A DNA stretch of 64,000 nucleotides from an uncultured Bacilli bacterium. Its GTDB lineage: Bacteria > Bacillota_I > Bacilli_A > RF39 > UBA660. The notes under the pieces were generated by a model. That model searched no databases. It had not been told where the DNA came from and saw nothing but the letters and a program-made list of their open reading frames with translations. Positions 2,145 to 26,501 of the stretch are shown here, in pieces (positions within the stretch are counted from its first letter, which is position 1; each line of letters begins with the position of its first letter). The translations under genes and the position numbers were made by a program. The DNA lies in the NCBI GenBank assembly GCA_934129885.1, contig CAKOWU010000006.1:12695-76694 (forward strand). Direction: 5' to 3'.

Positions 2145-3959
2145 ATGAAACAAAGAAATATTGCGATTATTGCACACGTAGATCATGGTAAGACTACTTT
2201 GGTTGATAAGTTATTACAAATGTCTGGTACTTTTAGAGAGAATGAAGATGTTTCGGTACGTGTAATGGACTCTAATGATATTGAGAGGGAAAGAGGTATT
2301 ACTATACTTGCGAAGACGACCGCTATTAATTATAAAGGATATAGAATTAATATTTTAGATACTCCTGGTCACGCGGATTTTGGTGGCGAGGTCGAGAGAA
2401 TTATGAATATGGTTGATGGCGTATTACTTGTTGTTGATGCATATGAGGGTACTATGCCACAGACTAGGTTTGTTCTTAAGAAGGCTTTGGATGCTGGGGT
2501 TACTCCTATTGTTGTTGTAAATAAGGTTGATAAGGATTCTGCTAGACCTACTGAGGTTGTTGATGAGGTTCTTGATTTATTTATTGAACTTGGTGCTTCT
2601 TTGGAACAATTAGATTTCCCAGTTATTTATGCTTCTGCGCTTTCTGGTACTTCTAGTTTATCTCCCGATTTATCTACGCAAAAGGAGACTATGGATCCTA
2701 TTTTAGATACTGTTATTAATCATATTCCTGCTCCTAAGGTGGAAGAAAACGGGCCACTGCAATTTCAACCAGCACTTTTAGACTACAATGATTTTGTCGG
2801 ACGTATCGGTGTTGGTTTAATAAAAAGAGGAAAGATTAAACTTAATAGTATGGTTTCTTGTGTTCGCTTTGATGGCTCTATTAAGCAGTTTAGAGTTCAG
2901 AAAATTTTTGGTTATTTAGGTCTTAATAAGATTGAGCTTCAGGAAGCACATGCGGGCGATATTGTTGCTATTGCGGGATTACCGGACATTTCTGTCGGTG
3001 AGACTGTGTGTGAGGTTGGAAAAGAGGAAGCGTTACCGCATTTACGTATTGATGAGCCAACTTTACAAATGAGATTTGGTGTTAATACTTCGCCTTTCTG
3101 TGGTAAAGAAGGAAAGTTTATTACTGCTAGAAAGATAGAGGAAAGACTTATGAAGGAAACTGAAAGGGATGTTTCACTTAAGGTTGAGCCTTTTGATTCG
3201 GAGTCTTGGACTGTTTCTGGTAGAGGTGAGTTACATCTTTCTATTTTAATTGAAAATATGCGTAGAGGTGGCTATGAAATTGAGGTATCTAAACCAGAGA
3301 TAATTGTTAAGGAAATAGATGGCACTAAATACGAGCCATATGAAGATGTTCAAATTGATGTCCCTGATGAGTATGTTGGTAGTGTTATTGAAATTCTTGG
3401 TACTCGTGGTGGAAGTATGGAGAATATGGATTCTAAGGAAAATCAGACTAGACTTAATTATGTTATGCCATCTAGGGGATTAATTGGTTTTATGACTGAT
3501 TTTATGACACTTACTAAAGGTTATGGTATTATTAACCACACTTTTAAGGAATATTTACCTATGACTAGTGCTGCGGTTGGTCAAAGAAAGAATGGCGTTT
3601 TGGTTTCTATGGAAAATGGTAAGGCAACTGCTTATTCTTTGGGCGCTCTTGAGGACAGAGGTGTTATGTTTATTGAACCTGGTACTGATGTATATGAGGG
3701 CATGATTGTTGGCGAGAATAATCATGATAATGATCTTGCAGTAAATGTTGTTAAGGGTAAGCAACTTACAAATACTCGTTCTGCGGGTAAGGATCATACT
3801 GTGGTTTTGAAAAGACCTAGAGAGATGAGTTTGGAAGTTTGTCTTGATTATATTAATGATGATGAACTCGTTGAGGTTACTCCTGTTAGTTACAGACTTC
3901 GTAAGAAGATTTTAAATACTAACGAAAGAAAGAAATTTGATAATAAGAAAAAGGCTTAG
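2145..3959 (+). CDS. typA: Translational GTPase TypA/BipA
   Basis: 'NIAIIAHVDHGKTTLVD', 'DTPGHADFGGEVER', 'NKVD'. The 604-aa full-length architecture is typical of BipA. Confidence 0.97.
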   Translation: MKQRNIAIIAHVDHGKTTLVDKLLQMSGTFRENEDVSVRVMDSNDIERERGITILAKTTAINYKGYRINILDTPGHADFGGEVERIMNMVDGVLLVVDAYEGTMPQTRFVLKKALDAGVTPIVVVNKVDKDSARPTEVVDEVLDLFIELGASLEQLDFPVIYASALSGTSSLSPDLSTQKETMDPILDTVINHIPAPKVEENGPLQFQPALLDYNDFVGRIGVGLIKRGKIKLNSMVSCVRFDGSIKQFRVQKIFGYLGLNKIELQEAHAGDIVAIAGLPDISVGETVCEVGKEEALPHLRIDEPTLQMRFGVNTSPFCGKEGKFITARKIEERLMKETERDVSLKVEPFDSESWTVSGRGELHLSILIENMRRGGYEIEVSKPEIIVKEIDGTKYEPYEDVQIDVPDEYVGSVIEILGTRGGSMENMDSKENQTRLNYVMPSRGLIGFMTDFMTLTKGYGIINHTFKEYLPMTSAAVGQRKNGVLVSMENGKATAYSLGALEDRGVMFIEPGTDVYEGMIVGENNHDNDLAVNVVKGKQLTNTRSAGKDHTVVLKRPREMSLEVCLDYINDDELVEVTPVSYRLRKKILNTNERKKFDNKKKA

Positions 3960-3963
3960 CAAT

Positions 3964-4103
3964 AAAATACTCTATAAAGTTTTAACCTTTATAGAGTATT
4001 TTTACATTTATTTACATTCAATTATAAAACATGATTATTTTTGCAATAAATTACTTATTGACTCGTTTTTTCTTTAATTTTGTGGTTGAATAAATATTAT
4101 TTT
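3964..4103. repeat. Left copy of an imperfect direct repeat of about 140 bp (partner at 12680-12818)
   Basis: By-eye alignment: identical hairpin arms 'aatactctataaag/ctttatagagtatt', then 'tttacattt(a/g)tttacatt', 'gattattttt', 'ttacttattg', 'tgtggtt(g/a)aataaat'. Confidence 0.85.
3966..4003 (+). terminator. Rho-independent terminator of typA
   Basis: 14-bp perfect stem (3966-3979 / 3987-4000), 7-nt loop, T-run. Confidence 0.85.
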
Positions 4104-4402
4104 CGGAAAGATATTCAAGTGTTATAGTTAATAAAAAATATAAGTTTAATTATGAAAGTAATGTTTATCGAATTTTAAGGTGATTTTAATTTAGTACTAT
4201 CTAGTAAGTAAGATATAATTTGGTGAAGAAACAATTTAATAAAAAGAGAAATTTAGGCATTTACTTTGTACCTAAGGAAAAGCATCACAAACCCTTATAA
4301 ATATTGGTTATAGTGATGCTTTTTAAGTTGATTAACTGAAAAAGCATGGTTATATCATTAGTGAAATATAATCATAAGAATTAATAAATTAATGTTGTTA
4401 AT

Positions 4403-4430
4403 TTGACAAATCTTTTTAATTTTGTATAAT
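4403..4430 (+). promoter_or_regulatory. Sigma-A type promoter for the first island genes
   Basis: TTGACA (4403-4408), 16 bp spacer, TATAAT (4425-4430), preceded by TG. Confidence 0.55.
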
Positions 4431-4461
4431 AACATTGTTTTTTAAGAGGGGAGAGATTATT

Positions 4462-5571
4462 ATGGTGGATAATAGCTATGGGGATAATATGTTTAGTAAA
4501 AATTCAGGTTTTCTAAAAAAACAATCAGATATTGTCTCATTATCTAATAGTAATGATTTTGATGATTGGATTAATGAAGTTAATCAGATATTTGATGAGA
4601 TAGAAAACGGTAAATCCGAAGGGAAATATAAACATTTAACAAAAACAGATTTAGAAGAATTATGTGATATAGTAAAATCGTATAAAGATTATAATGCTTC
4701 TGAGGCTGCCTCTAAGCTTTTATATGCAATGATGAAGATTCAAGATAGACTTTTTGAAGAAAAGTTTTTACTTCTACAAACTAAAGATATATTAGATTCA
4801 TTAAATTCATTACATTTTCCACATTTTGGTCAAAAACAAATTGCTACTAAAGATGGTGACGCTAGTAATGTTGCGTTGTCAGTTTTGCCTTATGCTATAG
4901 CTAGTGGCTATATAGAGAATCCTAGTAAAAAAACTGTAATTATTGCTAAATTAATTGGGAGAGATATATTGAATGACTATCAAGAAAAATCTAAAACGTT
5001 AGATAAAGGATGTTTACCTTTTGTGGATGAGGAAAAAAACGGTATAATGGCAATTATGAATGTAGTTAGGGTAAATGCTAAAAAATTAGTGGCAGGTAAG
5101 CAACTTGAAAATTGTATATATCCGGAAACTACTATGGCTTATATATATTCTTTATTAAAAGATGATATAAAAAATCCTTTTAAATACCTTGACTTTTTAA
5201 AGAAAAAAATTAAACAAAATGCTAGTGATACTTATTTAAATATTATTGCTCTTTATTCTGCTGATGATTTATTAGAAGGGCAGGTTGCTATTAGTGAAAT
5301 GGAGTGCGATATTGAAGATAGGGTGATTTACAATCCAATTAAGTTTTCATTTGATGATAATATTATTATAATAGGACTTGCTAAGAAATTAAAATCTGAT
5401 GGCTCTTATTTAGATGATTTTATTAAGTTATTAGTAGAAAATGGTTTGGCAAATGACCTTAATAATGTAAAAATAAAAGATTTTGAATTAGAATATGATC
5501 TATATAATAAGAAAGAAAAAAGTTATCAATATAAATTAAATTATAAAGATGATAAAATTAATGATTTGTAA
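4462..5571 (+). CDS. Hypothetical protein (island gene 1)
   Basis: Long ORF. ATG at 4462 is preceded by 'agaggggaga'. No motif recognised. Confidence 0.7.
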   Translation: MVDNSYGDNMFSKNSGFLKKQSDIVSLSNSNDFDDWINEVNQIFDEIENGKSEGKYKHLTKTDLEELCDIVKSYKDYNASEAASKLLYAMMKIQDRLFEEKFLLLQTKDILDSLNSLHFPHFGQKQIATKDGDASNVALSVLPYAIASGYIENPSKKTVIIAKLIGRDILNDYQEKSKTLDKGCLPFVDEEKNGIMAIMNVVRVNAKKLVAGKQLENCIYPETTMAYIYSLLKDDIKNPFKYLDFLKKKIKQNASDTYLNIIALYSADDLLEGQVAISEMECDIEDRVIYNPIKFSFDDNIIIIGLAKKLKSDGSYLDDFIKLLVENGLANDLNNVKIKDFELEYDLYNKKEKSYQYKLNYKDDKINDL

Positions 5572-5604
5572 AATATATAATTATTAAACGAGGGGGAGAT
5601 AAAA

Positions 5605-6330
5605 ATGTTAAGTAATGATATAATAATAAAATTTTTAAATGATATTGAAAATCCAGGAATAAATGTAAGCAAACGTGTGGAGCAATATTTGTCTATTGTA
5701 CCTGGCGACAAAAAGAAACAAACAATTTATGAAGTGATTGATGGGTTGAAAGAAATTAAAGAAGAAAAAGAAGTTTTAGAATCTTGTGAATTGTTTGAAA
5801 GACAAATAAAAATTTTAGATGAGATAATTAAGGAACTTATAAAAAGAGGAAAACATATGAATAAAAAAGTGCATATGAATAAAAAAGAAGATTTTGCTGA
5901 TAAACAAGAACAGAATAATAAACAAGTATTTTCTGAAGAAACTGAAAAAGCACCTGAGGTTACTGAAAATTTAAATGGGGGTGATACTTTGGATAATTCA
6001 GAGAGTATTAATGAAACAGAGGAGTTAGAACAAGTTAATATTAGTGCACAAGAATCTTCAGATAAAATAGAAAATTTTACTGGACAAGTAAGTAAAGATG
6101 AACTTGAAAATTATATATGTTTATTGAAAGAGCAATTTGATTCGTTAAAAGAAACAAATGACATAAAAGAGGCTTTAATTGATAAAATAAATGAAGTTCA
6201 AGCGGAAATAGCTAAAGAAATTGAAAGAGGTATTCAGTTGGATGAACAATTAATTGCTTTGCAAAGTAAGAATATTGGAATAAAAGAGGATGGAAATGAT
6301 GGACGTCAATTTGTTAAAAACAATGAATGA
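5605..6330 (+). CDS. Hypothetical acidic coiled-coil protein (island gene 2)
   Basis: ORF with RBS 'gaggggga'. E/K/D-rich. No motif recognised. Confidence 0.65.
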   Translation: MLSNDIIIKFLNDIENPGINVSKRVEQYLSIVPGDKKKQTIYEVIDGLKEIKEEKEVLESCELFERQIKILDEIIKELIKRGKHMNKKVHMNKKEDFADKQEQNNKQVFSEETEKAPEVTENLNGGDTLDNSESINETEELEQVNISAQESSDKIENFTGQVSKDELENYICLLKEQFDSLKETNDIKEALIDKINEVQAEIAKEIERGIQLDEQLIALQSKNIGIKEDGNDGRQFVKNNE

Positions 6331-6427
6331 AAAACAATTACAAGAATTGTTAGAAAGCCTTGAAAATGAATTGCAGATTTTGAAGCTTAAAAATTTGAAG
6401 AAAGAAATATTAATTGAAACGCTATAA
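6290..6427 (+). CDS. Possible 45-aa coiled-coil micro-ORF overlapping the end of island gene 2
   Basis: 'MEMMDVNLLKTMNEKQLQELLESLENELQILKLKNLKKEILIETL', immediately followed by a hairpin plus T-run (6428-6450). No clear RBS. Confidence 0.2.
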   Translation: MEMMDVNLLKTMNEKQLQELLESLENELQILKLKNLKKEILIETL

Positions 6428-6545
6428 GCTGTTTTTACGGCTTTTTTCCATAGTGATTTTATGGAAATTTGGTATACAAAAATGTAAAACTTTAAGTAAA
6501 ATTAGTTACTGTTTACATAATTCTTGATAAATGTTGCTTTTCTTA

Positions 6546-6554
6546 TGCTATAAT
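6546..6554 (+). promoter_or_regulatory. Extended -10 element upstream of the sigma gene
   Basis: TGcTATAAT. The nearest TTGATA lies 19 bp upstream, so its spacing is suboptimal. Confidence 0.4.
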
Positions 6555-6587
6555 GAAAAAAATAGAGTGTTATAGGGGGTGGACGCT

Positions 6588-8018
6588 ATGGATAAATATA
6601 TATTGCCAAAAAATTTGGCTAAATACGGATATGGCTGTGATGATCCTGTTAGGACTGCTTTTTCGGTAGATGAAGAGGGATTATTTGATTATGATTCTTT
6701 AGAATCAATTGACGATGATATATTAGATGAAGAAACTGTTAAAGTAAATGTGAATAAAATTATAACGGTTGTTGATAATTTGGCGTATGAACATAGAAAA
6801 CTTTTAAAAAACGGGAGTCAATATTTTGAACTGGAGTCAATTATACCATTACATGAAATAAAAGAAAAATTTGATAATGATAATGAGATTAAATTGGCTT
6901 TGGATTATGCAATTAGTATGGGTTATAAAATTCGTGGTAATGATGCTGATATGGAAAGTGAACAAGAAAATTATTATAGACATGCGGATAATGCTAAAAT
7001 TAATTTACCAATACCATATGAAAGAAATTATCAAAATCAATTACTAGAACAATTAATTACATATAGAAATATATTGTGTTCTTTAATGTATTTAGATGGC
7101 GAAAATGTGTCTTTTGAAAAAAAAGACACCATAAAATTAAACATGGATGATGACACAGAAGAATTTTTAGCTTTTAAAAATAAATATTCAGAAATATTTT
7201 CAGAATATTATCGAATTAGGGGTGAAATAGCTGAGCATAATATGAGGTTAGTAAATTGGTGGTTCTATAAACAGAAAATAAAGGAGATAAATACTGAAAA
7301 TTTTATTTCTACTGGTTATCTAATTTTGTTTAAGGCTATCGATAATTATGTGCGCAAGCCAGAAAATTTGAAAAATTATGCATTATCAACATTTATATGT
7401 AATCAACTTAATTGGATGTTTGTTAAGAGTAATAAAGGTATAGCAGAATATGATGATACTACTTTTATAAGGCTTCCGGATTATATTGTTACGCAAATAA
7501 ATAAATATAAAAAAGTTAGAAATGCTTTGTCTGAGTTTGGTGAACCTACAAGTAGTGAGATAGGGGGAGCGATGGGACTTTATAGTGAAAGAGTTAGGGA
7601 ACTTGAAATGTTAGATGAAAGAAAAAAAGTTTTGAGTTTAGATGAACTACTTTCTCAAAATCTAGATTTAGAAATTTATTCAGTTGGTTTAGAGAAACCA
7701 ATGGTTTCTCATGATCCGGAATTGGTGGCAGAATTTAATGAGGTTAAAGAAAGCGTGTCTAGAGTATTGGATAGATTTTCTGAAAGAGAAAGAAAAGTTA
7801 TTGAACTAAGATTTGGACTAAAAGATGGTTACCAACGTACTCTTGAAGAAGTCGCCCGTGAATTTGGTGTAACTAGAGAGAGAATAGCACAAATGGAAAG
7901 TAAGGTTTTAGCAAAATTACGTCTTGCTTCTAATAGTTCAGAACTTAATAAATATGTAGTTGATGGTGTTAGTCCGTATTCAGAGATAGAGGCAGAATAT
8001 GGCGGTCGCACTTTATAA
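6588..8018 (+). CDS. RpoD-like sigma-70 family sigma factor paralog with a long N-terminal extension
   Basis: Region 2 'HNMRLVNWW...FISTGYLILFKAIDNY', region 3 'IRLPDYIVTQINKYKKVRNAL', region 4 'ERERKVIELRFGLKDGYQRTLEEVAREFGVTRERIAQMESKVLAKLR'. Confidence 0.85.
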   Translation: MDKYILPKNLAKYGYGCDDPVRTAFSVDEEGLFDYDSLESIDDDILDEETVKVNVNKIITVVDNLAYEHRKLLKNGSQYFELESIIPLHEIKEKFDNDNEIKLALDYAISMGYKIRGNDADMESEQENYYRHADNAKINLPIPYERNYQNQLLEQLITYRNILCSLMYLDGENVSFEKKDTIKLNMDDDTEEFLAFKNKYSEIFSEYYRIRGEIAEHNMRLVNWWFYKQKIKEINTENFISTGYLILFKAIDNYVRKPENLKNYALSTFICNQLNWMFVKSNKGIAEYDDTTFIRLPDYIVTQINKYKKVRNALSEFGEPTSSEIGGAMGLYSERVRELEMLDERKKVLSLDELLSQNLDLEIYSVGLEKPMVSHDPELVAEFNEVKESVSRVLDRFSERERKVIELRFGLKDGYQRTLEEVAREFGVTRERIAQMESKVLAKLRLASNSSELNKYVVDGVSPYSEIEAEYGGRTL

Positions 8019-10623
8019 ACATAATGAAGAAGCTTATCAAAAATTAATAAGTACTTTAAAAAATAATAAGTATGCTACTATAAATCATGCGACAGGAACA
8101 GGAAAATCATATATAATTTTAAAATATATGGAAGAACATCCAAACGCAAGAATTTTGTATATTGCTCCTACGTATGAAATAATTAATCAATTGATAAATA
8201 GAGATGCTCCTAAGCTGGGAATAGAAAAATTAGATAATGTTGATACTTTGATATATAGAACTTTACTAGATAAAAATATGAGTGATTTGGCTTTGAATTA
8301 TGATGTTTTTATACTTGATGAATATCATAGAGCAGGTGCAAAAAAGACAAATAATAGAATTAAAGAATTAAAAGAAATTATAAATAATGCCGATAAAAAA
8401 ATGATTGGTTTTTCAGCGACACCAACCAGATATTTAGATAATAAAAGAAATATGAAAGAAGAATTGTTTGAAGATGTAGAAGCATCTGAACTTTCAGTAG
8501 CTACTGCTATGGCTAATAATCTTTTGCCAGTGCCACTTTACGTGGTGTCAAAAATGGCTTTAAAGGATGATTATGCTAAGGCTATTCGTAGCGTTGATAG
8601 ATTGTTTCCGTCGTCTAGAAAGCAGAAATTACTTAGAGAATTAAACAGTATTTTTCCGCAAGGTGAGAGTTACAAGAAAACTATTAATAAATATGTAAAA
8701 GAAAATAGCAAAAATATTGTCTTCTGTTCAACTATTGGTGATTTAAATGAGACTATCAAAGAAAGTGAACTATGGTTTGAAGATTATGATAATGTATTTA
8801 GATATGCGATACATTCTGGTAAAACTCATGAGGAAAATATTCGAACTTTAAATGAATTTAATTTGACTAATAATGGATTATCAGTGCTTTTTGTTATAAA
8901 TATTTTAAATGAAGGTATTCATGTTGATTCTGTAGATAATATAATTTTAAATAGAAGGACTACTTCACCTATTATATATTTGCAACAAATTGGAAGAGTA
9001 TTATCGGCAAATCAAGTCAATAGAGATGTAACGATAATTGATTTAGTAAACAATTTTGATGCAACTAAAGAAATTAGGGAATTATTTTTGGATATTGAAG
9101 ATGAAATAAATAAAAAAATGGGTGAAGATTCTTTACAAAAAGAGTTATATCAGGAAAAATTAAACAAATTAAAATCTGCTCACGCAACTGCGGAAACACT
9201 TGAAAGACTTAGAAATATTAGGAATGAAGTAACGAGAGAAACAATCATTGATTCAAAAATAGAAAATTCTATAAATATTTTAGATTGTTATCAAAAGCAA
9301 ATAAAAAAACGTTTAACTATGTATAACATTTTAGATCCGAAAGTAAAAAATGCTTATATTTATATTTATAAGTATGTCAATTATATAACTAATGAACAAT
9401 TTGATCTGCTGAAAGAAATAGATATGGTACTTCCTTTAGAACTTCAAGTAACTTTTGAGGAGAGGAAAGAACAGTTAAAGGGTTATAATAGTATATTTTT
9501 AAGAGATATGGCTGTTTTGAAACAGAATTTTGAAGATGTACTTGTTGCTTTAGATACTCATATACCAGATGCAAATTCAAGCGATGAAGAAGAACGTGCA
9601 CTTGGTAATATTTATATGGATTTATTGGTAAGCAGTAATAAAGATGATTTAAATTTACTTAAGAATAAGGCGATAAAATTTGATTTATCACCAATTGAAA
9701 AAGCTTTATTTAGAATGGAATTATCAAATGAAGAAATTGAAAAATTGATAATTAGTGCTTATGATTCTTATAAAGGTGATTCGGTGTCAGAACAAATTAA
9801 AAAGGCTTTATCTAGTGTTTATGGTGAAAATAAAAAGTACGATGAATTGATTATAAAACTTTTAAATTTAATTGAAAAAAGAGAAAATCAGCAAATAGAA
9901 AAAATAAATAAAAATTTAAAATTGATTAGATTATTAAATCAAATAACTGAAGATAAAGATGATTATGAAGATGATTACTACTTTATGGAAGATTTTGAAA
10001 AATTATCTATGAAGGAGCAAATGGAAGTTAATAAAAAAATAGAATTTGCAAGGCATCGTAAATATTATAAGATGATGAAGCAATTAAATAGTACTTATAG
10101 TATTAGTGAGTATATGGATATTTATAGTAAGTTAGATGAAGATAATATTGACTACTATAGAGAAGTGATTGCTGAGTGTAAAAATTTAAATAATCTTCTT
10201 AAAGATTACGTAAAAAATGATGGTGATTTAAAAGAAGAAGTATTAGACGAAATTAGCCAAATGCTACAAAAAAGAGGAATGATTTTGGATGATATTAAGA
10301 AGACTATGCAGAAAAATAAAACAAAATTTTATTCAAAATTATTGGAAGAAGATATTCAATTAGAAAAAAAAGATTTTCTTTGTTTATATACTAGATTTAT
10401 AAAAGTCCATGAAAGGAAGCCGTTGCAGGAAATAGAAGAGGAGGCAACTCTTTATGAACAATATTGGGATTATCTAAATATATTTTCAAAGGGGGAAATA
10501 GATTGTATATTGAAAAAAGTAAATACTAATAAGGTACTTGATAATACTTTAAAAATGCGTCGCAAATATTATAGTAAGCAACTGAACGTAAGGTTTCAAA
10601 ATAACGGGAGGCAGGTAAAATGA
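7999..10623 (+). CDS. Superfamily-2 (ResIII/DEAH-like) helicase with a C-terminal extension of about 500 aa
   Basis: Motif I 'HATGTGKS', motif II 'DEYH', motif III 'SATP', motif VI 'QQIGRVLS'. The start overlaps the sigma gene by 20 nt. Confidence 0.85.
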   Translation: MAVALYKHNEEAYQKLISTLKNNKYATINHATGTGKSYIILKYMEEHPNARILYIAPTYEIINQLINRDAPKLGIEKLDNVDTLIYRTLLDKNMSDLALNYDVFILDEYHRAGAKKTNNRIKELKEIINNADKKMIGFSATPTRYLDNKRNMKEELFEDVEASELSVATAMANNLLPVPLYVVSKMALKDDYAKAIRSVDRLFPSSRKQKLLRELNSIFPQGESYKKTINKYVKENSKNIVFCSTIGDLNETIKESELWFEDYDNVFRYAIHSGKTHEENIRTLNEFNLTNNGLSVLFVINILNEGIHVDSVDNIILNRRTTSPIIYLQQIGRVLSANQVNRDVTIIDLVNNFDATKEIRELFLDIEDEINKKMGEDSLQKELYQEKLNKLKSAHATAETLERLRNIRNEVTRETIIDSKIENSINILDCYQKQIKKRLTMYNILDPKVKNAYIYIYKYVNYITNEQFDLLKEIDMVLPLELQVTFEERKEQLKGYNSIFLRDMAVLKQNFEDVLVALDTHIPDANSSDEEERALGNIYMDLLVSSNKDDLNLLKNKAIKFDLSPIEKALFRMELSNEEIEKLIISAYDSYKGDSVSEQIKKALSSVYGENKKYDELIIKLLNLIEKRENQQIEKINKNLKLIRLLNQITEDKDDYEDDYYFMEDFEKLSMKEQMEVNKKIEFARHRKYYKMMKQLNSTYSISEYMDIYSKLDEDNIDYYREVIAECKNLNNLLKDYVKNDGDLKEEVLDEISQMLQKRGMILDDIKKTMQKNKTKFYSKLLEEDIQLEKKDFLCLYTRFIKVHERKPLQEIEEEATLYEQYWDYLNIFSKGEIDCILKKVNTNKVLDNTLKMRRKYYSKQLNVRFQNNGRQVK

Positions 10624-12608
10624 ACTTTGAAGAATATTTAAAATTAGCAATAGAGGATGAAAATATTAATTTAATTGGAATATTGGTGGAAAAATATAGA
10701 ACGGAAGGGATTGAAGCCGTAGAAAGTCTTTTGTCTAGCTATAATCCAGAAAATAAAGATAAAAGTCAATTTTTTACTCCTCTGGTGGAAAAATGTCAAG
10801 AATTGATGGAAACCGCTAATGAAGAAGAAAAGAATATATATGAGGCAATAATAGATTTTTGTCAGGCACAGCCTAAAGATGAATATGATTTTTTAAATGG
10901 AGGTAGTAGTAAATTTAAAGTTTTTTTTGCAGGTAAGTCTTTAGAATGCTGGAAAAACCTGGATCCTGCTTATCGAGTAAAATTTTTAGATTGTATTGAA
11001 AATTATCTTTCCTCTGAACATGATGAAATTGCATTAGTTGATGTTAAAACTTTGTATTCTTTCAATAGTGGAATAACTGTTAGAAGACGAAAGTATGCTA
11101 GATTTAATCGTATAATTTTTTATCGTGTTCCAGCTGATAGATGTGTAGTAATACTTGGAATGTTTAAAAGAACTGGTAATGCATTAGATTATTCTAAATT
11201 TATTCCAGTTGATAAAAAACTAGATTCTATTGAAGAGTCACGAAAAGCTTTTTTGAATGGAACTTTAAGTTTGGATAATGAACACTATAGCGTTGTAAAA
11301 GAAATAAAGAAATTTTTGTTTAGAGTAAATAAAAATGAGTATCCAACATCATTGGAAATAAAAGATATTTTGCCTGAAACTACGCTTTCTACTGGTGACG
11401 ATTCAATAACTGATGTATCAGCGTTGACAAAGTTAGATGATGAGGTAATTGAAGATGGTGTGAAAATTGCAGAATCTAGTGAAAACACAGTGGTTGAAAC
11501 TGGTATGAAAGTGTTATCTAGTGAAGAAGATATACCTAAGTCTAAAGTGAGAAAAAGCAAGAGAAATAACAGAACTGGAATACCTGATGTTATGTGGCTT
11601 AGTAGGTTTGATGTTGCCAAAGTCTTTTATGATAAATATGGTCATTTGAATTTTGATGAGGTCACTGAATGTGCTGAACTTGGATATTTGAATATGAAGA
11701 TGTGGTTAGACGAACAGAAAAAGTTATTTCAAAGAGGACTTCTTTCGAAGCAGCAATGTGAAAAATTAAAAGAAATTGGTATTTCTTTTGAAACACCTTC
11801 TAAAGAAGATGAAAAAATTGAGGTCTTGACTCTTGAAGTTACGGAAGAAGATGCAAAAAGTGAAAAGTCTCCTGCTATTGTACTTCCAAACGATTCTTTC
11901 TTTGATGAGAGGTCAGTAATAAATGCTATAAATGATATTACTTTAGTAGAACCTTTAAGGTTACTTTCTGTGGAAGAACTTAATAGTTTAGATGAAGGTT
12001 TTATAGATGATTTTACTATAGTATATAATTATAAAAAAGAAACTGGTACAATTGATATCCATGATAAAAATTTTAATATTGGTGAAAATGCTGGTAAAGT
12101 AAATAATATTATTAAAAAATGGAATAAGAAGAAAAATAAGTTTAATGAAGTAAAAAGAAAATTAATTGATGAATTGTGTATGTCTTTAAAAGAAGAAGAA
12201 TTAGCCAAGTCTGTTGTTCTTGCCGAAGAATCAACGGATGGGGATTTTAGTTTGGTATTACAATCTTTTGATGATGTTAGGGGGGCGATTCTTGGAGAAA
12301 CCGAAGAAGAATCAACTCAGTCATTGGAAACTTTGGGAAATGAATTTATAAGTGATTGTGATGATTATCATATTCTAGCTAAAAAAATGAATATTTTAAC
12401 TTTTATTAATAATATGTCTGATGATAAAATTAAACAAATAAATGCAGTATTAAATTGTGATTTTAGCGATGATTATTCACCAAAGGAAACTTTGTTAATG
12501 CTTATTAATAATGTGTCTGATGAACATTTGGATCAAGTGCTAAAAATATTGGATAATGTTTATAGTAACGACGTGCCAACTGTCCATGATGGAAAATCAA
12601 TTAGTTAA
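10620..12608 (+). CDS. Multidomain protein: RelE/HigB (Gp49)-like core, helicase-associated (HA) domain and an acidic C-terminal region
   Basis: ATGA start/stop overlap with the helicase. 'RRRKYARFNRIIFYRVPADRCVVILGMFKRTG' is RelE/HigB-like. 'WLSRFDVAKVFYDKYGHLNFDE...LGYLNMKMWLDEQKKLFQRGLLSKQQCEKLKEIGISF' is an HA domain. Confidence 0.8.
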   Translation: MNFEEYLKLAIEDENINLIGILVEKYRTEGIEAVESLLSSYNPENKDKSQFFTPLVEKCQELMETANEEEKNIYEAIIDFCQAQPKDEYDFLNGGSSKFKVFFAGKSLECWKNLDPAYRVKFLDCIENYLSSEHDEIALVDVKTLYSFNSGITVRRRKYARFNRIIFYRVPADRCVVILGMFKRTGNALDYSKFIPVDKKLDSIEESRKAFLNGTLSLDNEHYSVVKEIKKFLFRVNKNEYPTSLEIKDILPETTLSTGDDSITDVSALTKLDDEVIEDGVKIAESSENTVVETGMKVLSSEEDIPKSKVRKSKRNNRTGIPDVMWLSRFDVAKVFYDKYGHLNFDEVTECAELGYLNMKMWLDEQKKLFQRGLLSKQQCEKLKEIGISFETPSKEDEKIEVLTLEVTEEDAKSEKSPAIVLPNDSFFDERSVINAINDITLVEPLRLLSVEELNSLDEGFIDDFTIVYNYKKETGTIDIHDKNFNIGENAGKVNNIIKKWNKKKNKFNEVKRKLIDELCMSLKEEELAKSVVLAEESTDGDFSLVLQSFDDVRGAILGETEEESTQSLETLGNEFISDCDDYHILAKKMNILTFINNMSDDKIKQINAVLNCDFSDDYSPKETLLMLINNVSDEHLDQVLKILDNVYSNDVPTVHDGKSIS

Positions 12609-12679
12609 GCTGGGTAGTGTGTCTTGATAAACATTGTGTTGTTGGTTTTTCTTACCAATACTAAATATTGTAGAATTCT

Positions 12680-12818
12680 AAAATACTCTATAAAGATGAA
12701 ACTTTATAGAGTATTTTTACATTTGTTTACATTTAAATACAAAATGTGATTATTTTTACAATAAGTTACTTATTGGTCAACTTTTTATTTATTTGTGTGG
12801 TTAAATAAATTTTATTTT
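12680..12818. repeat. Right copy of the imperfect direct repeat of about 140 bp (partner at 3964-4103)
   Basis: See the left copy. It ends at the stop codon region of cotJC. Confidence 0.85.
12682..12718. terminator. Bidirectional rho-independent terminator (island operon / cotJC)
   Basis: Same 14-bp stem as at 3966-4003 with a different loop ('atgaaa'). A-run on one side and T-run on the other. Confidence 0.8.
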
Positions 12819-13395: not shown

Positions 13396-14061
13396 CTATT
13401 CATTTTCCCATGGCCATGGTGATTCATTCCAAGACCAAGGTGTCCTTTCTGCACTATTTACATATATTGGTCCATATTCTTTTTCATAATCTTTTGTGAT
13501 TTTATCTAATTCTTTAGTAAATGTTTTGAATAGATTTAACATATTTGTATCGTTTGGATGTGTATCTAAATATAGATTTAAATCATGAGTTGCGAAAGAA
13601 TAAGCATATATATATGTAAGCATTTCTGCCTGTTTGTTTATTGGTTTTACCTCGTAAGGCTTTGATATTTTATATGAATTATATAAGTCTTTAAACATAT
13701 TACCGCTGATGAAACCGGTATATACTTCGTATAGATCATTTGGATTTACGTTTTGGATGTAGTTTGGTTTATTAAAGTTCATGTTATTACCTGCTTCTTT
13801 ATTTAATTTGTTTATAAGTTCGTTATTTGGTGTTCCTTGAACATTTAGATTTGAATTTATATTATAATTTTGGTTATTAGTGTATATTCCGTTTGTGGCG
13901 TATTTTTGATTACTCGCATAAGTTCCGCTTTTGGTGTAGTTATAGTTGTTGTTTGGCATGTTTTGCCCAGTTATGGTTTTATTCCAATTATAGTTTGGAT
14001 ACATTTCGGTATTGTAATTTGAATTATTTGGAATATAATTCATATTGTTATAGTTATACAT
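13396..14061 (-). CDS. cotJB: CotJB-domain spore coat protein with a CotJA-like motif and an N/Y-rich N-terminal extension
   Basis: C-terminal 'FATHDLNLYLDTHPNDTNMLNLF...YEKEYGP' (CotJB). Strong RBS 'gaggagggtaattaaATG'. Confidence 0.8.
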   Translation of the reverse strand: MYNYNNMNYIPNNSNYNTEMYPNYNWNKTITGQNMPNNNYNYTKSGTYASNQKYATNGIYTNNQNYNINSNLNVQGTPNNELINKLNKEAGNNMNFNKPNYIQNVNPNDLYEVYTGFISGNMFKDLYNSYKISKPYEVKPINKQAEMLTYIYAYSFATHDLNLYLDTHPNDTNMLNLFKTFTKELDKITKDYEKEYGPIYVNSAERTPWSWNESPWPWENE

Positions 14062-14210
14062 TTAATTACCCTCCTCAATTTTATGGTATGATTACCTAGC
14101 GTCTGTGAACGGGCTAAAGACTAGAAATAGGTGTTTTTTGTTGATTACTTGAAAAAAGGCCTTTTGAGTGTTGCTATTTCGGAAAATATGATGTAGTATA
14201 ACGTGTGGTG

Positions 14211-17200
14211 ATGTTGGTGAGTAAGTTTTACAATGAATTGGCGAGGAAATTAGGTCCTACATCGTTTACTAGAGGTGTTAGTTATAATGCGTCTAAGGTA
14301 CATTTAACTCGCTCGGAGTTTAATGATGAATATAAAAAGAGTTTTTTTGATGTACAGTCAGAGAACAGCGATGAAGCTTATAAAGTAGTAATTTTGACTG
14401 ATACTGAAGATGAAGAAATTTTGAACTATTCTTGTAGTTGCCCATGGTTCGCTCAGGTTCATACTTGTAAGCATGTCGTGGCGTGTGCGATTAAGTATGA
14501 AGATTTTATATTTGATGATGAAGAAGGAGCAACTCAAATTGATGAGAAACATAAGTTGCAAGTATCAAGGTCTATTATTAACACTTTATTTAAACCTAGA
14601 AATAAGAATATCAGGAAGAAACTTAAACTTGAGATAATACTTGCGGAAACCAACACTTGGTATGATGATAGATTATATGCACAATTTAAAATAGGTGAAG
14701 AAAAGACTTATGTACTTTCAAATAAGTATAATCGTTTTATTTCGGCGTATGAAAAAGGTGAGCCTTTTAAGATGACTGCAAAATTCACTTATGATCCGGC
14801 GGTACATTATTTTAGTGATGAAGATAAAAATATTTTAGATTTTGTCGCTGGTAATTATCAAACACTTAGTAATAGTGATGGATTATTTATTATGCCTAGG
14901 CAATTGGATTTTTTTATGAACTTTCTAAAGAAAAAGAGATTTCGTATTAAGGATGGTCCTACTTTTCAAGGCTTTTTGGAAGAAAATCCTTTTGATACGG
15001 AACTATCACGTGCGGGCGATACTTATACTTTGAAGATTGTTAACCAAGATAGTTATAGTTCACTTTGTTCTTCTAGATATATTTATGATAGTAAGAATAT
15101 GTATAAACTTTCGGATGATATAGCTGTGATGTATTTTAATTTATTAAGATTTGGAATGGATAGTCTTGTTTTTGAAAAAAAGGATCTTAATAATTTTACA
15201 CAAGGGGTTTTACCTTTAGTTAAGGATAAAGTTGTGGTAGATGAAAGTGCTGGTGAGATTAAGATTAGTTTAAAGCCAAGGGGTCAGTTATATTTTGATT
15301 TTTATCATAATGCAATTGAGTGTAAAGTTAAGTTAATATATGGCGAAAAGGCGATCAATTTATTTGATAAAGTTGATAATATTTTAAGAGATGACGAGTA
15401 CGAAAGTAGTATAATCATGAAATTACATGAACTTGGCTTTGAAGAAAATAAGAAGAAGTTTATTCTTGATGATATTGATTTAATGGGTGAATTTTTAGAT
15501 GAGGGACTTGATAAGCTTACTGATAAATATGAGATTTTTACTTCTAAAAAGATAAAAGATAGTAAGATTATGAAGAATATAAATGGTAATGCGAATTTTT
15601 CTATTGGTCAAGATAATATTATGAAGTATGATTTTTCTTTGGATGGTGTTTCTACGTCGGAACTTTCGTCTATTATGGACAGTATGCATATGAAGAAAAA
15701 ATATCACAGGCTTAAGAATGGTGATTTGATTGATTTACGTCATAATGATGCTTTAGAGAATATTGATAAGTTAGCGGCCGATATGGACTTATCAGAAAAG
15801 GAACTTCTAGGTGGCGAAATTCCAAAATATAGAGCTATATATTATGATAGTTTGAAGAACAGGTATGGTAATATTATTAGGACTAATAATTTATTTGATG
15901 ATCTCGTTACGAATTTTAAGAAGTATAAAGATGCTGAAATTAATCTTTCTAAAGAGGAAATGGCTGTTCTTCGTGATTATCAAAAAACTGGTGTTAAGTG
16001 GTTATATAATATTTATAAAACTGGTTTTGGCGGAATTTTAGCGGATGAAATGGGTCTTGGTAAGTCTATTCAACTTATTTATTTAATTAAGTTATTAGTA
16101 AGGGAAAAGGCTGATGCGAAAATATTAATTGTGGCACCGACATCTCTTGTTTACAATTGGAAGAAAGAGTTTGATAAGTTTGGCTCTGATATTAAGTATG
16201 GTGTTTTCGCCGAAGGAAGGGCTGAAAGGCGAGCTTTACTTAATGATTCTGATGATATTAATGTATATATTACTACTTATGGTCTTGTTAGGAATGATTT
16301 GGATGAGTATAATAATATTAATTTTGATTTGGTTGCTATTGACGAGGCCCAGAATATTAAAAATGCTTCTACTTTGGTTACTAAGGCTGTTAAGAGTTTG
16401 AATGCAAGGGTTAAGATTGCACTTACTGGTACGCCACTTGAGAATTCGGTCATGGAACTTTGGAGTATTTTTGATTTTATTATGCCTGGTTATTTAGCAA
16501 ATAGTAAGAAGTTTAAGAGTTTATATAATATAGGTGATGTTGATGATGAGTCACTTAAGAAGTTAAATAATCTTAATTTACAGATTAATAATTTTATATT
16601 AAGACGTAGAAAGAGCGATGTAGCGAAGGATTTACCTGATAAGATCTATAATAATATATATGTTGATTTTGGTGCGGAACAGAGGAAACTTTATATGGCA
16701 CAGGTGCAGAAGACTAAAGAAGAAATGCAGGAGATGATGGCTACTGAAGGGTTTATTAAGGCGAGGTTTAAGATTTTACAACTTTTAACTAAACTTAGGG
16801 AGATATGTATTGATCCTTCTATGGTGTTTGATAATTATAAGGGTGATAGAGTCAAGATTGATGAACTTATTAGGCTTGTTTTAGAGACGAAGGCTAATGG
16901 ACACAAGATGCTCGTTTTTACTTCTTATAAGACGGCACTTGATATTGTACTTAAGGAATTTGAAAAAAATGGCATAACAGCTTATTCGATAGATGGTAGC
17001 ACACCTTCTAAAAAGCGTATGGAGCTAGTGGAGAAGTTTAATAATGATAATACTGATGTGTTTATTATTACGCTTAAGGCTGGTGGTACGGGACTTAATT
17101 TGACATCTGCAAATGTTGTTATTCATTTGGATTTATGGTGGAACCCACAGGTTGAGAATCAGGCTACCGACAGGGCACACAGAATTGGTCAAAAAGAGAC

Positions 17201-17393
17201 TGTTTCGGTTATTAGGCTTATTGTAAATGGCACAATTGAGGAGAGAATTCTTGAGTTACAGGAAAAGAAACGCAAACTTGCTGATGTGCTAATCGAAGGT
17301 GATACTAGGTCTTTGAATAATCTTTCTAATTTGTCTGAAGAAGACATACAAATGTTGCTTTCTATGGACAATGATGAGGGTGTTAGAAAATAA
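14211..17393 (+). CDS. SWIM zinc-finger SNF2-family helicase (YwqA/RapA-like)
   Basis: SWIM 'CSCPWFAQVHTCKHVVA'. SNF2 motifs 'LADEMGLGKSIQ', 'DEAQNIKN', 'TGTPLEN', 'QATDRAHRIGQ'. Confidence 0.93.
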   Translation: MLVSKFYNELARKLGPTSFTRGVSYNASKVHLTRSEFNDEYKKSFFDVQSENSDEAYKVVILTDTEDEEILNYSCSCPWFAQVHTCKHVVACAIKYEDFIFDDEEGATQIDEKHKLQVSRSIINTLFKPRNKNIRKKLKLEIILAETNTWYDDRLYAQFKIGEEKTYVLSNKYNRFISAYEKGEPFKMTAKFTYDPAVHYFSDEDKNILDFVAGNYQTLSNSDGLFIMPRQLDFFMNFLKKKRFRIKDGPTFQGFLEENPFDTELSRAGDTYTLKIVNQDSYSSLCSSRYIYDSKNMYKLSDDIAVMYFNLLRFGMDSLVFEKKDLNNFTQGVLPLVKDKVVVDESAGEIKISLKPRGQLYFDFYHNAIECKVKLIYGEKAINLFDKVDNILRDDEYESSIIMKLHELGFEENKKKFILDDIDLMGEFLDEGLDKLTDKYEIFTSKKIKDSKIMKNINGNANFSIGQDNIMKYDFSLDGVSTSELSSIMDSMHMKKKYHRLKNGDLIDLRHNDALENIDKLAADMDLSEKELLGGEIPKYRAIYYDSLKNRYGNIIRTNNLFDDLVTNFKKYKDAEINLSKEEMAVLRDYQKTGVKWLYNIYKTGFGGILADEMGLGKSIQLIYLIKLLVREKADAKILIVAPTSLVYNWKKEFDKFGSDIKYGVFAEGRAERRALLNDSDDINVYITTYGLVRNDLDEYNNINFDLVAIDEAQNIKNASTLVTKAVKSLNARVKIALTGTPLENSVMELWSIFDFIMPGYLANSKKFKSLYNIGDVDDESLKKLNNLNLQINNFILRRRKSDVAKDLPDKIYNNIYVDFGAEQRKLYMAQVQKTKEEMQEMMATEGFIKARFKILQLLTKLREICIDPSMVFDNYKGDRVKIDELIRLVLETKANGHKMLVFTSYKTALDIVLKEFEKNGITAYSIDGSTPSKKRMELVEKFNNDNTDVFIITLKAGGTGLNLTSANVVIHLDLWWNPQVENQATDRAHRIGQKETVSVIRLIVNGTIEERILELQEKKRKLADVLIEGDTRSLNNLSNLSEEDIQMLLSMDNDEGVRK

Positions 17394-17473: not shown

Positions 17474-17550
17474 GGCGGAATTGGTGAAGTGGTTAACACG
17501 ACGGATTGTGGTTCCGTTACGCATCGGTTCGATTCCGATATTCCGCCCCA
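17474..17550 (+). tRNA. tRNA-His: tRNA-His (GUG) with the extra 5' G and encoded CCA
   Basis: 77-nt cloverleaf. Anticodon loop 'TTGTGGT', T-arm 'GGTTCGATTCC', 3' CCA. Confidence 0.95.
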
Positions 17551-17590
17551 GAATGTAAAATCGTCGCACCAATTGCGACTTTATGATTAA

Positions 17591-20330: not shown

Positions 20331-21641
20331 ATGGCTGTTACTAAAATATGGAAGATAAAAAATAATTTAAAGCATTCTATAAATTATATAGTTAATCATG
20401 AAAAAACTTTAAACACTGAGTATGGAAAAAATGTATATGATGAATTTCATTTAGATAATAAACCTAATTATAAAAACGAATTGTCTCATTATATTACAGG
20501 AGTTAATTGTCTAGCAAATACGGCATATGAAGATATGATGATGACTAAACAGCAATACGGCAAAGAGGATGGCATTATTGCCTATCATGCATATCAATCT
20601 TTTAATGATGATATTACTCCTGAACTTGCTCATGAAATTGGTATTAAACTAGCTGAAGAAATGTGAAATGATTTTGAAGTAGTTGTTGCTACTCATCAAA
20701 ATACTAATCATATTCATAATCATTTCATAATTAATTCTGTTTCATATTATACGGATAAAAAATATAACAATAATAGACCTAATTTGGCTAAATTGAGGCA
20801 TATATCCGATGCTTTATGTGAAGAATATGGACTAACTACTTTAAATGAAAAAAGTGAATATAAAAACACTTATAAGTATAAAGTGTTAGATAACGATTAT
20901 TATAAAGTAGTTAAAGAAGATATAGATGATATTCTTAGCTATTCAATTACCTATGACCAATTTATAAACAGATTAAAAAAATTAAATTATAAAGTTTATA
21001 ACAATTATGGTAAACTTACTATTTATAAAGAAGGTTTTGATAAGGTTAGAATTGAAAAAGCATTTGGTGAAGATTATTGTATTGATAAAATTAAAGATAA
21101 ACTATATAACAACAAATATTCAAATCAAATTGCCTTCAAACCAAAATCCCAAAAGTCTATATTTGAAAAGTTTTTATCTATTACCAATAATAAGCATAAA
21201 GGAATACTTGGTTTATACTATTATTATTGCTATTTATTAGGTGTATTTCCAAAAGAAAATCCTAAACAATATTTGCCTTATTCAATAAGAAAAGAAATTA
21301 AAAAAATGGAACAATATTCTGAAGAAGCAAGGTTTATGGTTTCCAATAAAATTGAAACTAAAGATGATTTAGAAATTTTATTAAAAAATACAGAGGAGCA
21401 ATATTATAAATCAACTAGTGATAGAACAAATTTATGGACAAGACATCGTAGAGCAAAAACTGACGATGTTAAAAATGAAATTAAATCTAAAATAGATGAA
21501 ATTCAACCTAAAATTAAGGAACTTCGTAAACAAATTAAGTATTGTAAAAATATTAAAGAAAGATCTGAAGAAATGCAAAATAATATTAATAATTTTGATA
21601 AAGATTTAGCCAAAGAAAAAGACAAGTCATGGTCTAGATAA
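20331..21641 (+). pseudogene. MobA/VirD2-family relaxase interrupted by an in-frame TGA (20664-20666)
   Basis: The ORFs at 20331-20666 and 20784-21641 are in the same frame. The read-through segment contains the His triad 'ATHQNTNHIHNHFIINSVS'. Confidence 0.8.
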
Positions 21642-21658
21642 CCTGATTTGTCTTTTTA

Positions 21659-23893: not shown

Positions 23894-24005
23894 ATATTAT
23901 CACCTTAATTTAATTAAATTATATCAAATTAAGCATTTGCTTACAACTGTTGATTAATAAAAACATTATATTAACTAAAAAAGACATAACTAAATGGTTA
24001 TATCC

Positions 24006-24419
24006 TTAATATCTTCTTTTGAATACTTCAGTATCTTTATAAGCATCTGCTAATTCTGCATAACCTTTTCTTTTTTCTTTTAATAAAGGATGTTCTGTGC
24101 GAAGAAGATAGGTAACTAATAGTTCATATATTTCCCTATGAGTATCCATCTCTCCACCATAATTTTCTCCTACTGTGTAAGAATCAATTTTCCCTTGAAT
24201 ATCTAATTCAACTGCTCTTGCAAGTAGCTCATGGCCATCATATTTCTCATATTTCTTTAATAATTAATCAACCATCTCTTTATCATTAAGAAACATATCA
24301 GAATAATAATGTGATTCTTCATCATTATTAGCATTAAAAATTACTGATGAATATTTCCCTTTCTTGTTTTGTGATTTTAAATCATTAGTTGGTTCTTTAT
24401 AATCTCTTTCTTCATTCAT
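24006..24419 (-). pseudogene. Hypothetical gene with an in-frame TAA (24264-24266)
   Basis: 138-codon frame 'MNEERDYKEP...MVD*LLKKYEKYDGHELLARAVELD...'. It starts 3 nt after the stop of the upstream gene. Confidence 0.45.
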
Positions 24420-24421
24420 TT

Positions 24422-24838
24422 TTAATCCTCCTCTTCAAATGAAATATTAATTATTTCTTCACAAAATAATTTTATTTTATCAATAATTATATTAACAATT
24501 ATTCTTTCTTTATCTATTCTTTTACACCTAACAAATACATCTTCATCTGGGATAATATCAACCTTGTAGTCTAAATCAACGCCATTTTCCACCAAATCAT
24601 TATTTTCATAATATAAATAATCACTAATTCCTTGTCTTTCTATGATGGCATCTACTTTTAAACTTTTAAGATATTCTAAATATTCAAAACTTTCAAAACA
24701 ATGTTTTTTAGTTTTTTCTTCTTCTTCGTATGAAATCAGTAAATCAACAACTTTAATATTTGTTTTTTTAGTATGCATACTTCCAATACTATACTGAACA
24801 TTTTCGTTTTTATATACTTGGTTACCTATTTTAAACAT
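24422..24838 (-). CDS. Hypothetical protein
   Basis: 138-aa ORF. No motif recognised. Confidence 0.55.
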   Translation of the reverse strand: MFKIGNQVYKNENVQYSIGSMHTKKTNIKVVDLLISYEEEEKTKKHCFESFEYLEYLKSLKVDAIIERQGISDYLYYENNDLVENGVDLDYKVDIIPDEDVFVRCKRIDKERIIVNIIIDKIKLFCEEIINISFEEED

Positions 24839-24928
24839 CTTAAGCCTCCAATAAAAATTACAAATTACAAATGTATGTCTACAATTATTCTATCATATTT
24901 GAATAACACTGAAAAGCATTATACTACT

Positions 24929-26263: not shown

Positions 26264-26322
26264 TTTGCACCTCCATTATCATCTAAACTAATCATATCAC
26301 ATTTTCTAATATTTTCCTAGTG

Positions 26323-26374
26323 AATTTCCTAATAAATTTCCTAATAAATTTCCTAATAAATTTCCTAATAAATT
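26323..26374. repeat. Tandem 12-bp repeat 'aatttcctaata' x4 plus a partial copy
   Basis: Perfect head-to-tail copies. Degenerate copies lie just upstream (26300-22). It sits 60-110 bp upstream of the AlbA_2 gene start, in a divergent intergenic region. Confidence 0.9.
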
Positions 26375-26501
26375 ATTGTCGTAAGAAATGTTGCAAGAAA
26401 AGCCGTAAGAAAATTTAACGATTTTGTTAGAAAATGTCTAAAAATAATAAATAGAGTGTTATAATATATGACAAAGTTTTTTGATAAAGAGGTGAAAAAG
26501 T

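Follow-up and report, generated by a model that had tools for sequence, protein, structure and literature searches.

Promoter opening driven by ATP is known from sigma-54, which works with enhancer-binding AAA+ proteins, and from the eukaryotic TFIIH XPB/SSL2. By the accepted view, factors of the sigma-70 family need neither ATP nor a helper motor to melt promoters. One sigma-70 protein, mzaA, is part of a validated defence system (PMC9523054), and the helicase-associated (HA) domain is reported to bind DNA (Mills 2013, as cited in PMC12191111). The subject of this work is a three-gene operon at positions 6579-12608 of a 64,000-nucleotide (nt) stretch, hereafter the window, of contig CAKOWU010000006.1 from an uncultured Bacilli bacterium. 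The operon encodes a sigma-70-type factor, a superfamily 2 (SF2) helicase and a third protein with an HA domain. Its conserved unit is the sigma-helicase pair and not the trio, a point that an initial annotation of the window overlooked. The window is low-GC DNA (about 0.25-0.35) of a spore-forming Firmicute found in human gut metagenome assemblies, mostly from Hadza samples.

The sigma-helicase pair is conserved across species

The neighbourhoods of helicase homologues, whose inspection for sigma-helicase-HA co-occurrence had been suggested in the initial annotation, were scanned in one genome per species. The scan returned 43 loci, all from uncultured organisms, and the close loci belong to gut Bacilli, Clostridia, Tenericutes and Erysipelotrichaceae. 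Of these loci, 27 combine usable DNA with a close helicase, and 23 of the 27 encode a sigma paralogue on the same strand. The two genes are usually direct neighbours, separated by -38 to +68 nt. The 23 include one locus (L022) where the sigma is the true rpoD, located after dnaG and 1.9 kb downstream of the helicase. The usual gene order is helicase-sigma and the reverse order, sigma-helicase, is found in the window and in two relatives, L013 and L014. Both orders occur, and the adjacency therefore survived rearrangement. L013 and L014, which have the same gene order as the window, also encode the full trio.

The two proteins also vary together. Pairwise distances of the helicase core and of the sigma factor correlate with r = 0.90, a value reached in none of 2000 Mantel permutations, and the lengths of the two proteins co-vary (r = 0.71). 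Divergence across the cassette-bearing loci is very deep (28-44% identity). The flanking genes and their order are common to species within clades and the contexts are housekeeping (nusA-infB, ychF, rpsF-ssb) rather than mobile or defence genes. The GC content of the cassette differs little from that of its flanks at these other loci (mean -1.9 points, negative at 21 of 23), a difference that is not diagnostic. The pair stays together in at least 22 species-level genomes of uncultured gut Firmicutes besides that of the window, and in many other species it is a chromosomal cassette under stable inheritance. Because the adjacency survived inversion of the gene order and is accompanied by tight coupling and co-evolution, we conclude firmly that the sigma factor and the helicase are functionally linked.

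Individual loci carry additional arrangements around the pair. The helicase of L022 (7992-14604, Clostridia from sheep omasum) lies directly upstream of dnaG and the primary rpoD, an arrangement in which the link between sigma and helicase may have originated. Divergent sigma paralogues flank the helicase on both sides in a Tenericutes locus (L030, 6628-12127). In other clades a family of acidic, all-helical proteins of ~150-190 amino acids (aa) that have no Pfam match is encoded beside the cassette, in L005 (13994-14560), L012 (12048-12533), L018 (10750-11310 and 13759-14187), L019, L024 and L021, sometimes between the helicase and the sigma gene. One clade (L005, L012, L020) has a two-component system, consisting of a response regulator and a 722-aa histidine kinase, on the same strand immediately upstream of the cassette.

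The sigma factor is related to RpoD

The sigma gene (6579-8018, forward strand) encodes 479 aa from a GTG codon; gene callers working on independent contigs start at ATG 6588, which gives 476 aa and is the probable start. Pfam detects region 4 (Sigma70_r4, 9e-16, 57.5 bits), and region 3 scores 23.3 bits, under the cutoff of 25.3. The NCBIfam model RpoD_Cterm covers residues 216-460 (5e-33), and region 2 is visible through RpoD models only. The best solved-structure match is Bacillus subtilis SigA (8e-26, residues 194-459). Region 2, region 3 (below its cutoff) and the helix-turn-helix of region 4.2 place the protein in the sigma-70 family as a group 1/2-like member. No r1_1 or r1_2 match was obtained, leaving regions 1.1 and 1.2 undetected. 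The initial description of a complete sigma-70 factor with regions 1-4 was thus right about the type and about regions 2-4, with region 3 sub-cutoff, and is not borne out for region 1. Identity with the primary sigma factor RpoD/SigA was rejected: the protein scores 116 bits against a cutoff of 572, gives no match for regions 1.1 and 1.2 and has NQLNWM in place of TWWIRQ. Judged from its sequence, the protein is an RpoD-derived alternative sigma factor in which regions 2-4 follow an N-terminus of about 190 aa that is specific to the family, because its scores are far below the RpoD and MzaA equivalog cutoffs and regions 1.1 and 1.2 are undetected.

The family alignment defines which parts of RpoD were retained. 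An acidic DYEY start, a segment similar to region 1.1 and the motif IRGxNxTxSGExxNYxH are common to the members. Regions 2.1 and 2.2 are intact. In region 2.3 most members keep FSTYA (LSTFI in the window) but have lost the melting motif TWWIRQ. An IR(I/L)P-like region 2.4/3.0 is kept only in the window, L013 and L014 and is lost in most relatives. Region 4.2 is almost identical to that of RpoD.

The helicase has a conserved SF2 motor and an all-helical tail

The helicase gene (7999-10623, forward strand) encodes an 874-aa DExH SF2 helicase/translocase with a motor at residues 1-355 and an all-helical tail at 356-874. Pfam identifies ResIII (2e-14) and Helicase_C (6e-12) within residues 1-350, and the motifs HATGTGKS, DEYH, TATP and QQIGR are invariant across 60 helicase homologues. 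Motifs I, II (DExH), III and VI together with a confident two-lobe model assign the protein to the SF2 helicases/translocases, in agreement with the ResIII/DEAH-like assignment made in the initial annotation. The AlphaFold2 model (mean predicted local distance difference test score 89.5) consists of the two-lobe motor followed by the all-helical half. Foldseek matched the motor core alone, in the PDB to Type ISP LlaBIII, RadD, SauUSI, ISWI, HsdR and XPB and among viral models to SSL2/A18-type helicases; SauUSI was the best match in a PDB sequence-profile search (1e-17). Homologues number in the hundreds and are about 880-1300 aa long.

The C-terminal ~500 aa of the helicase had been described as several degenerate HA-like modules. 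An HA hidden Markov model (HMM) built from 356 domain instances gave a best domain E-value of 0.13 on residues 356-874, and hhalign against the C-terminal alignment returned a probability of 0.5%; the tail therefore carries no HA signal by either method and the description fails. The architecture of an HA-domain helicase (PF03457) was also considered for the window helicase and rejected, the HA modules being encoded in the next gene.

The third protein combines an HA domain with a predicted RelE fold

The third gene (10620-12608, forward strand) encodes 662 aa arranged as N-terminal helices, a RelE/YoeB-fold domain at ~97-185 in the predicted structure, an HA domain at 323-391, a weak HA-like stretch at 459-523 and C-terminal helical repeats. 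The HA domain scores 31.3 bits with PF03457 over residues 323-387 against a cutoff of 28.4, and 33.3 bits when the fragment is searched alone; the second stretch was found with the HA HMM. No RelE domain was found by sequence, either with Pfam (fragments with E-values up to 5) or by PDB-sequence profile search. An AlphaFold2 model that used 22 homologues of the N-terminal region contains a beta-alpha-alpha-beta-beta-beta unit at ~95-240, a segment modelled for the most part with high confidence that drops at ~130-150 (10-residue block means 63-96). The top 50 Foldseek matches in the PDB are mostly RelE, YoeB, YafQ, HigB and ParE toxins, and the RelE-type matches have target-normalised TM-scores of 0.6-0.79 and a root-mean-square deviation (rmsd) of ~3 A with weak E-values (0.02-1). 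The polar residues R156, R164, R169, D190, Y191 and H222 are invariant in the family. The model points to a probable RelE fold in the third protein, of putative activity. The arrangement of a stand-alone toxin with an adjacent antitoxin was not found here: the domain lies within a protein of 662 aa, and the gene ahead of it encodes the helicase. Of the HA and RelE/HigB-like parts proposed initially, the HA domain is firm, and the RelE core holds at the level of fold only, through the predicted structure and its weak Foldseek matches.

The word-indexed search for homologues of the third protein found only the protein itself, and an exhaustive search was needed. The gene that follows the helicase in L013 and L014 encodes a ~1000-aa protein whose N-terminal part is helical and which also carries a RelE/Gp49-like motif and five HA domains. 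BLASTP ties both to the third protein of the window; these genes are homologous and the trio is therefore conserved in the window sub-clade. Two more full-length relatives, P0127 and P0204, are colinear with 28-31% identity, and their loci gave no confirmed match in the JGI metagenomes. A family of ~300-aa proteins that consist of the N-terminal part and the RelE fold only sits in unrelated operons, and neither a helicase nor a sigma gene was present at these loci. Two such relatives (L056, 7583-8924; L058, 5076-6878) are found in operons with small overlapping open reading frames (ORFs) and may represent an undescribed toxin-antitoxin-like family.

The three genes form one predicted transcription unit

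The initial annotation described three packed genes with overlapping junctions, and both overlaps are real. The sigma and helicase genes share 20 nt (7999-8018), with a GAGG ribosome-binding site ahead of the helicase ATG, and the helicase and third genes are joined by ATGA at 10620-10623, which is preceded by a GGGAGG site. An extended -10 promoter element read off the sequence, TGcTATAAT, lies ahead of the sigma gene (6546-6554, forward strand). A terminator scan places a 16-bp hairpin, the operon terminator, 3' of the third gene (12680-12717, forward strand). These signals show a single predicted transcript for the trio with coupled translation, running from a housekeeping-type extended -10 promoter to a hairpin terminator. 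Canonical housekeeping-type promoters also precede the sigma-helicase cassettes at other loci. With housekeeping-type promoters upstream there was no need to invoke autoregulation by the sigma of the cassette, and this idea was set aside. In about 22 independent contigs all three ORFs are uninterrupted.

The operon lies on a strain-variable island

The boundaries of the island that carries the operon were defined with island-free contigs (L065-L069) whose flanks are 99.4-99.8% identical to the window. Their homology to the window breaks exactly at 3958 and resumes at 12813, so the strain-variable island is 3959-12812 (8,854 bp), in place of a 188-190-nt spacer between typA and cotJC. A pattern search of the metagenomes for empty-site DNA gave no match, and the empty site was reached through a slightly different TypA (P0300; 18 contigs) in which cotJC directly follows typA across this spacer. 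Contigs with the exact TypA or helicase of the window all carry the island. The claim in the initial annotation that the operon sits on an inserted segment is upheld by these strains, and the comparison shows by presence and absence among strains that the island copy of the cassette is accessory in this species.

The GC content is 0.25-0.29 inside the island and about 0.35 on the typA side. The island is bounded by an imperfect direct repeat of ~140 nt on the forward strand. The left copy (3963-4103) contains the typA terminator hairpin (3964-4002), and the right copy (12679-12818) contains the hairpin that ends the operon. The copies are 83-85% identical with a spacing of 8715-8716 nt (families D1, D9), and the empty-site spacer resembles either copy only partly. 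On account of this partial resemblance, the island may have arrived from a relative by flanking homologous recombination rather than by site-specific integration. No recombinase, replication, packaging or transfer gene was found within 3959-12812.

Upstream of the sigma gene the island carries a second operon of orphan genes (4435-6427, forward strand), comprising orf369/378 (4435 or 4462-5571), orf241 (5605-6330) and orf43 (6296-6427). A housekeeping-type promoter with 12/12 consensus positions, TTGACA-16-TATAAT (4403-4430, forward strand), precedes it, and the terminator scan places its end at 6426-6443 on the same strand. The orphan genes have no match in Pfam, NCBIfam or PHROG and no homologue at any related locus that was fetched; the PADLOC search gave a weak match of orf241 to the defence candidate PDC-M38B (7e-6).

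Further features lie around the island. The minus-strand gene at 13396-14061 encodes a CotJB homologue with an Asn/Tyr-rich low-complexity N-terminal extension of about 140 aa. Just past cotJB/cotJC, a large gene for a helicase with SWIM, SNF2_assoc and SNF2 domains (14205-17393) is present in strains with and without the island. In an island-carrying strain (L002, 14814-22625), cotJC is cut to 163 aa by a prophage-like insertion with a recombinase, PemK, HTH repressors and DnaB_2. A tRNA-His gene (window 17475-17550) is followed, to about 21000, by a serine recombinase, TnpV and a relaxase fragment. The similarity of L066-L068 to the window stops at 17552, and L065 matches beyond this point and carries the recombinase, TnpV and relaxase genes. 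The site past tRNA-His is a second strain-variable integration site, where one strain has a type IIG restriction-modification gene. The sign of the GC skew changes at ~21000-27000 over a block of minus-strand genes (21659-26263) that has the lowest GC of the window, about 0.24. There are no rRNA genes in the window.

Discussion

We favour, at slightly less than an even chance, the reading that the operon is a horizontally acquired copy of the conserved sigma-helicase cassette and that its two core proteins form one functional unit on DNA. The sigma factor keeps the polymerase-binding regions 2.1/2.2 and a nearly RpoD-identical -35 reading head in region 4.2. From these retained regions, the lost Trp-Trp motif and the loss of region 2.4/3.0 in most relatives, it would load core polymerase onto promoters that combine a normal -35 element with an unusual -10 element. 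The DExH motor, from the DNA-translocase branch of SF2, would use ATP to open, clear or remodel DNA where the sigma works. The HA protein that accompanies the motor in the window sub-clade has a gene of its own and may tether the motor to DNA, and the RelE-fold domain of this third protein would be an accessory regulatory or effector module confined to the sub-clade. A more specific form of this reading is helicase-dependent initiation within the sigma-70 family, in which the sigma positions polymerase and the SF2 motor with ATP opens or clears the promoter. We regard it as improbable; if true, the helicase-dependent sigma would be a bacterial counterpart of TFIIH XPB that arose within the sigma-70 family independently of sigma-54.

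Several observations weigh against a joint action of the two proteins. Neither a sigma-helicase fusion protein nor a regulon or promoter motif was found, and many alternative sigmas without the Trp-Trp motif still need no helicase. Shared descent alone also predicts co-evolution of adjacent genes. The nearest solved relatives of the motor are restriction enzymes and repair helicases, not transcription factors. The cassette is dispensable in this species and lies on an island with orphan genes, which fits a conflict system at least as well. In such an anti-phage defence or addiction system, the helicase with HA DNA binding would sense foreign or damaged DNA, and a RelE-fold ribonuclease, or a sigma that hijacks polymerase, would arrest the cell. 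The strain variability and lower GC of the island agree with this explanation, as do its location in a mobile-element hotspot, the weak resemblance of orf241 to a defence candidate and accessory partners that differ by lineage. The motor is most like SauUSI, Type ISP and HsdR and has core matches to PbeA and a type IV restriction enzyme in PADLOC, the predicted RelE/YoeB-fold domain has Arg, Tyr and His residues that do not vary within the family, and mzaA shows that a sigma-70 protein can belong to a validated defence system (PMC9523054). The species comparison points the other way: the cassette has a stable position between species among housekeeping neighbours, occurs in small-genome lineages and consists in most species of helicase and sigma only, with no recognisable effector, nuclease or toxin domain. 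PADLOC also gives no system-level match, and the sigma falls far short of the MzaA cutoff (121 against 800 bits). A defence or addiction function is thus a possible but rather unlikely explanation.

The pair could also be an ordinary regulator with a member of its regulon, that is, a stress- or repair-type sigma and a RadD-like repair or recombination helicase that share an operon without acting jointly at promoters. It is common for alternative sigmas to share a transcript with genes of the pathway under their control, the operon is under housekeeping-type promoters, and RadD is among the best structural matches of the motor, with an rmsd of ~8 A over ~390 columns. We give this explanation only a small chance, since adjacency kept through an inversion of gene order and 28-44% identity divergence, with tight translational coupling, exceeds what is usual for a regulator and a single target, and no other repair genes are linked. 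The least probable explanation, and a very doubtful one, is historical accident and decay, by which the helicase was once a neighbour of dnaG-rpoD, a duplicate of rpoD remained at its side by inertia, and the island is a decaying piece of a mobile element without current function. The order helicase, dnaG, rpoD at L022 would fit this history, as would ~140-nt flanking repeats that are only 83% identical and an island without a recombinase. It is hard to reconcile with three intact ORFs in about 22 independent contigs, ATPase motifs invariant in 60 homologues and an adjacency kept in both orders across 23 species.

A sigma lineage locked to an SF2 motor across gut Firmicutes suggests either a new control of initiation or a new sigma-containing conflict system, and either outcome adds a testable module in abundant, almost unstudied human gut organisms. 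Cloning and comparison are made practical by the small size of the cassette (about 6 kb), by its self-contained form and by the existence of natural strains that have or lack it.

Comparison with known systems

The sigma-helicase combination was matched by none of PADLOC 2.0, Pfam, NCBIfam, PHROGs, phage genomes, viral contigs or plasmids. The phage, viral-contig and plasmid collections gave motor-core or generic RpoD matches only, PADLOC gave only generic helicase-core matches besides the weak orf241 candidate, and full-text literature searches found no description of the cassette. Taken singly, the proteins are new members of known superfamilies, and the association of sigma and helicase is undescribed. 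The searches agree with the initial annotation that the trio fits no described defence, toxin-antitoxin, phage or plasmid module, and they did not reveal it as a routine part of a prophage, integrative and conjugative element or plasmid backbone. The suggestion made there of a degenerate or satellite-type element is not sustained, given that the island has no recombinase, replication or packaging gene and that the core is stably chromosomal elsewhere with housekeeping-type promoters.

The sigma factor resembles MzaA of the anti-phage MZA system (mzaABCDE) in being a sigma-70 protein encoded in an operon with ATPase/helicase-type partners. MzaA (NF041931) is its best NCBIfam match by E-value (7.7e-35), through the generic sigma domain only; the score of 121 bits against a cutoff of 800 is no better than with RpoD models, and the N-terminus is different. 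Identity with the MZA system was rejected on the missed MzaA cutoff and the absence of MzaB-E homologues in PADLOC. The RelE-fold domain is modelled with the beta-alpha-alpha-beta-beta-beta fold of the RelE/YoeB/HigB type II toxins and of RelE-fold effector domains such as Cami1 (target-normalised TM-score up to 0.79) and has conserved basic residues and a C-terminal Tyr, but it is embedded in a 662-aa multidomain protein without a small adjacent antitoxin and has no sequence-profile match to these toxins.

SauUSI and the Type ISP and Type I restriction motors are the closest solved motors by profile and fold, and they differ from the window helicase, which has no nuclease, methyltransferase or target-recognition domain. 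RapA (SNF2) and HelD (SF1) are motors that act on polymerase-DNA complexes, and SNF2/ISWI proteins are among the structural matches of the helicase. To our knowledge, neither RapA nor HelD is genetically coupled to a dedicated sigma, and their domain architecture is unlike that of the window helicase. Sigma-54 with its enhancer-binding AAA+ proteins and TFIIH XPB/SSL2 are works-like analogies only, each pairing an initiation factor with an ATP-driven DNA motor. Here the sigma belongs to the sigma-70 family, the motor is SF2 and not AAA+, and helicase-dependent melting is only hypothetical.

The motor clade itself is that of the HA-domain helicases, which combine ResIII, Helicase_C and repeated PF03457 domains and include two tandem genes on the Ruminococcus albus 7 plasmid pRUMAL01 and Bacteroides vulgatus BVU_0683. 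Identity to these proteins is 30-35% over residues 1-357 with the same motifs, and in the window a gene for an HA protein comes after the helicase. The classic members seen here have no sigma neighbour, and no HA domain is detectable in the window helicase. More remote proteins that share its motor, among them those of Bacteroidota, Subdoligranulum and the R. albus 7 pRUMAL01 tandem genes, hold 5-12 true HA domains in one polypeptide; in the window, L013 and L014 the HA domains are encoded in the next gene. On this comparison of predicted domains, the window clade is a split version of the classic HA helicase, and the cassette gives a first genomic handle on this uncharacterised helicase family.

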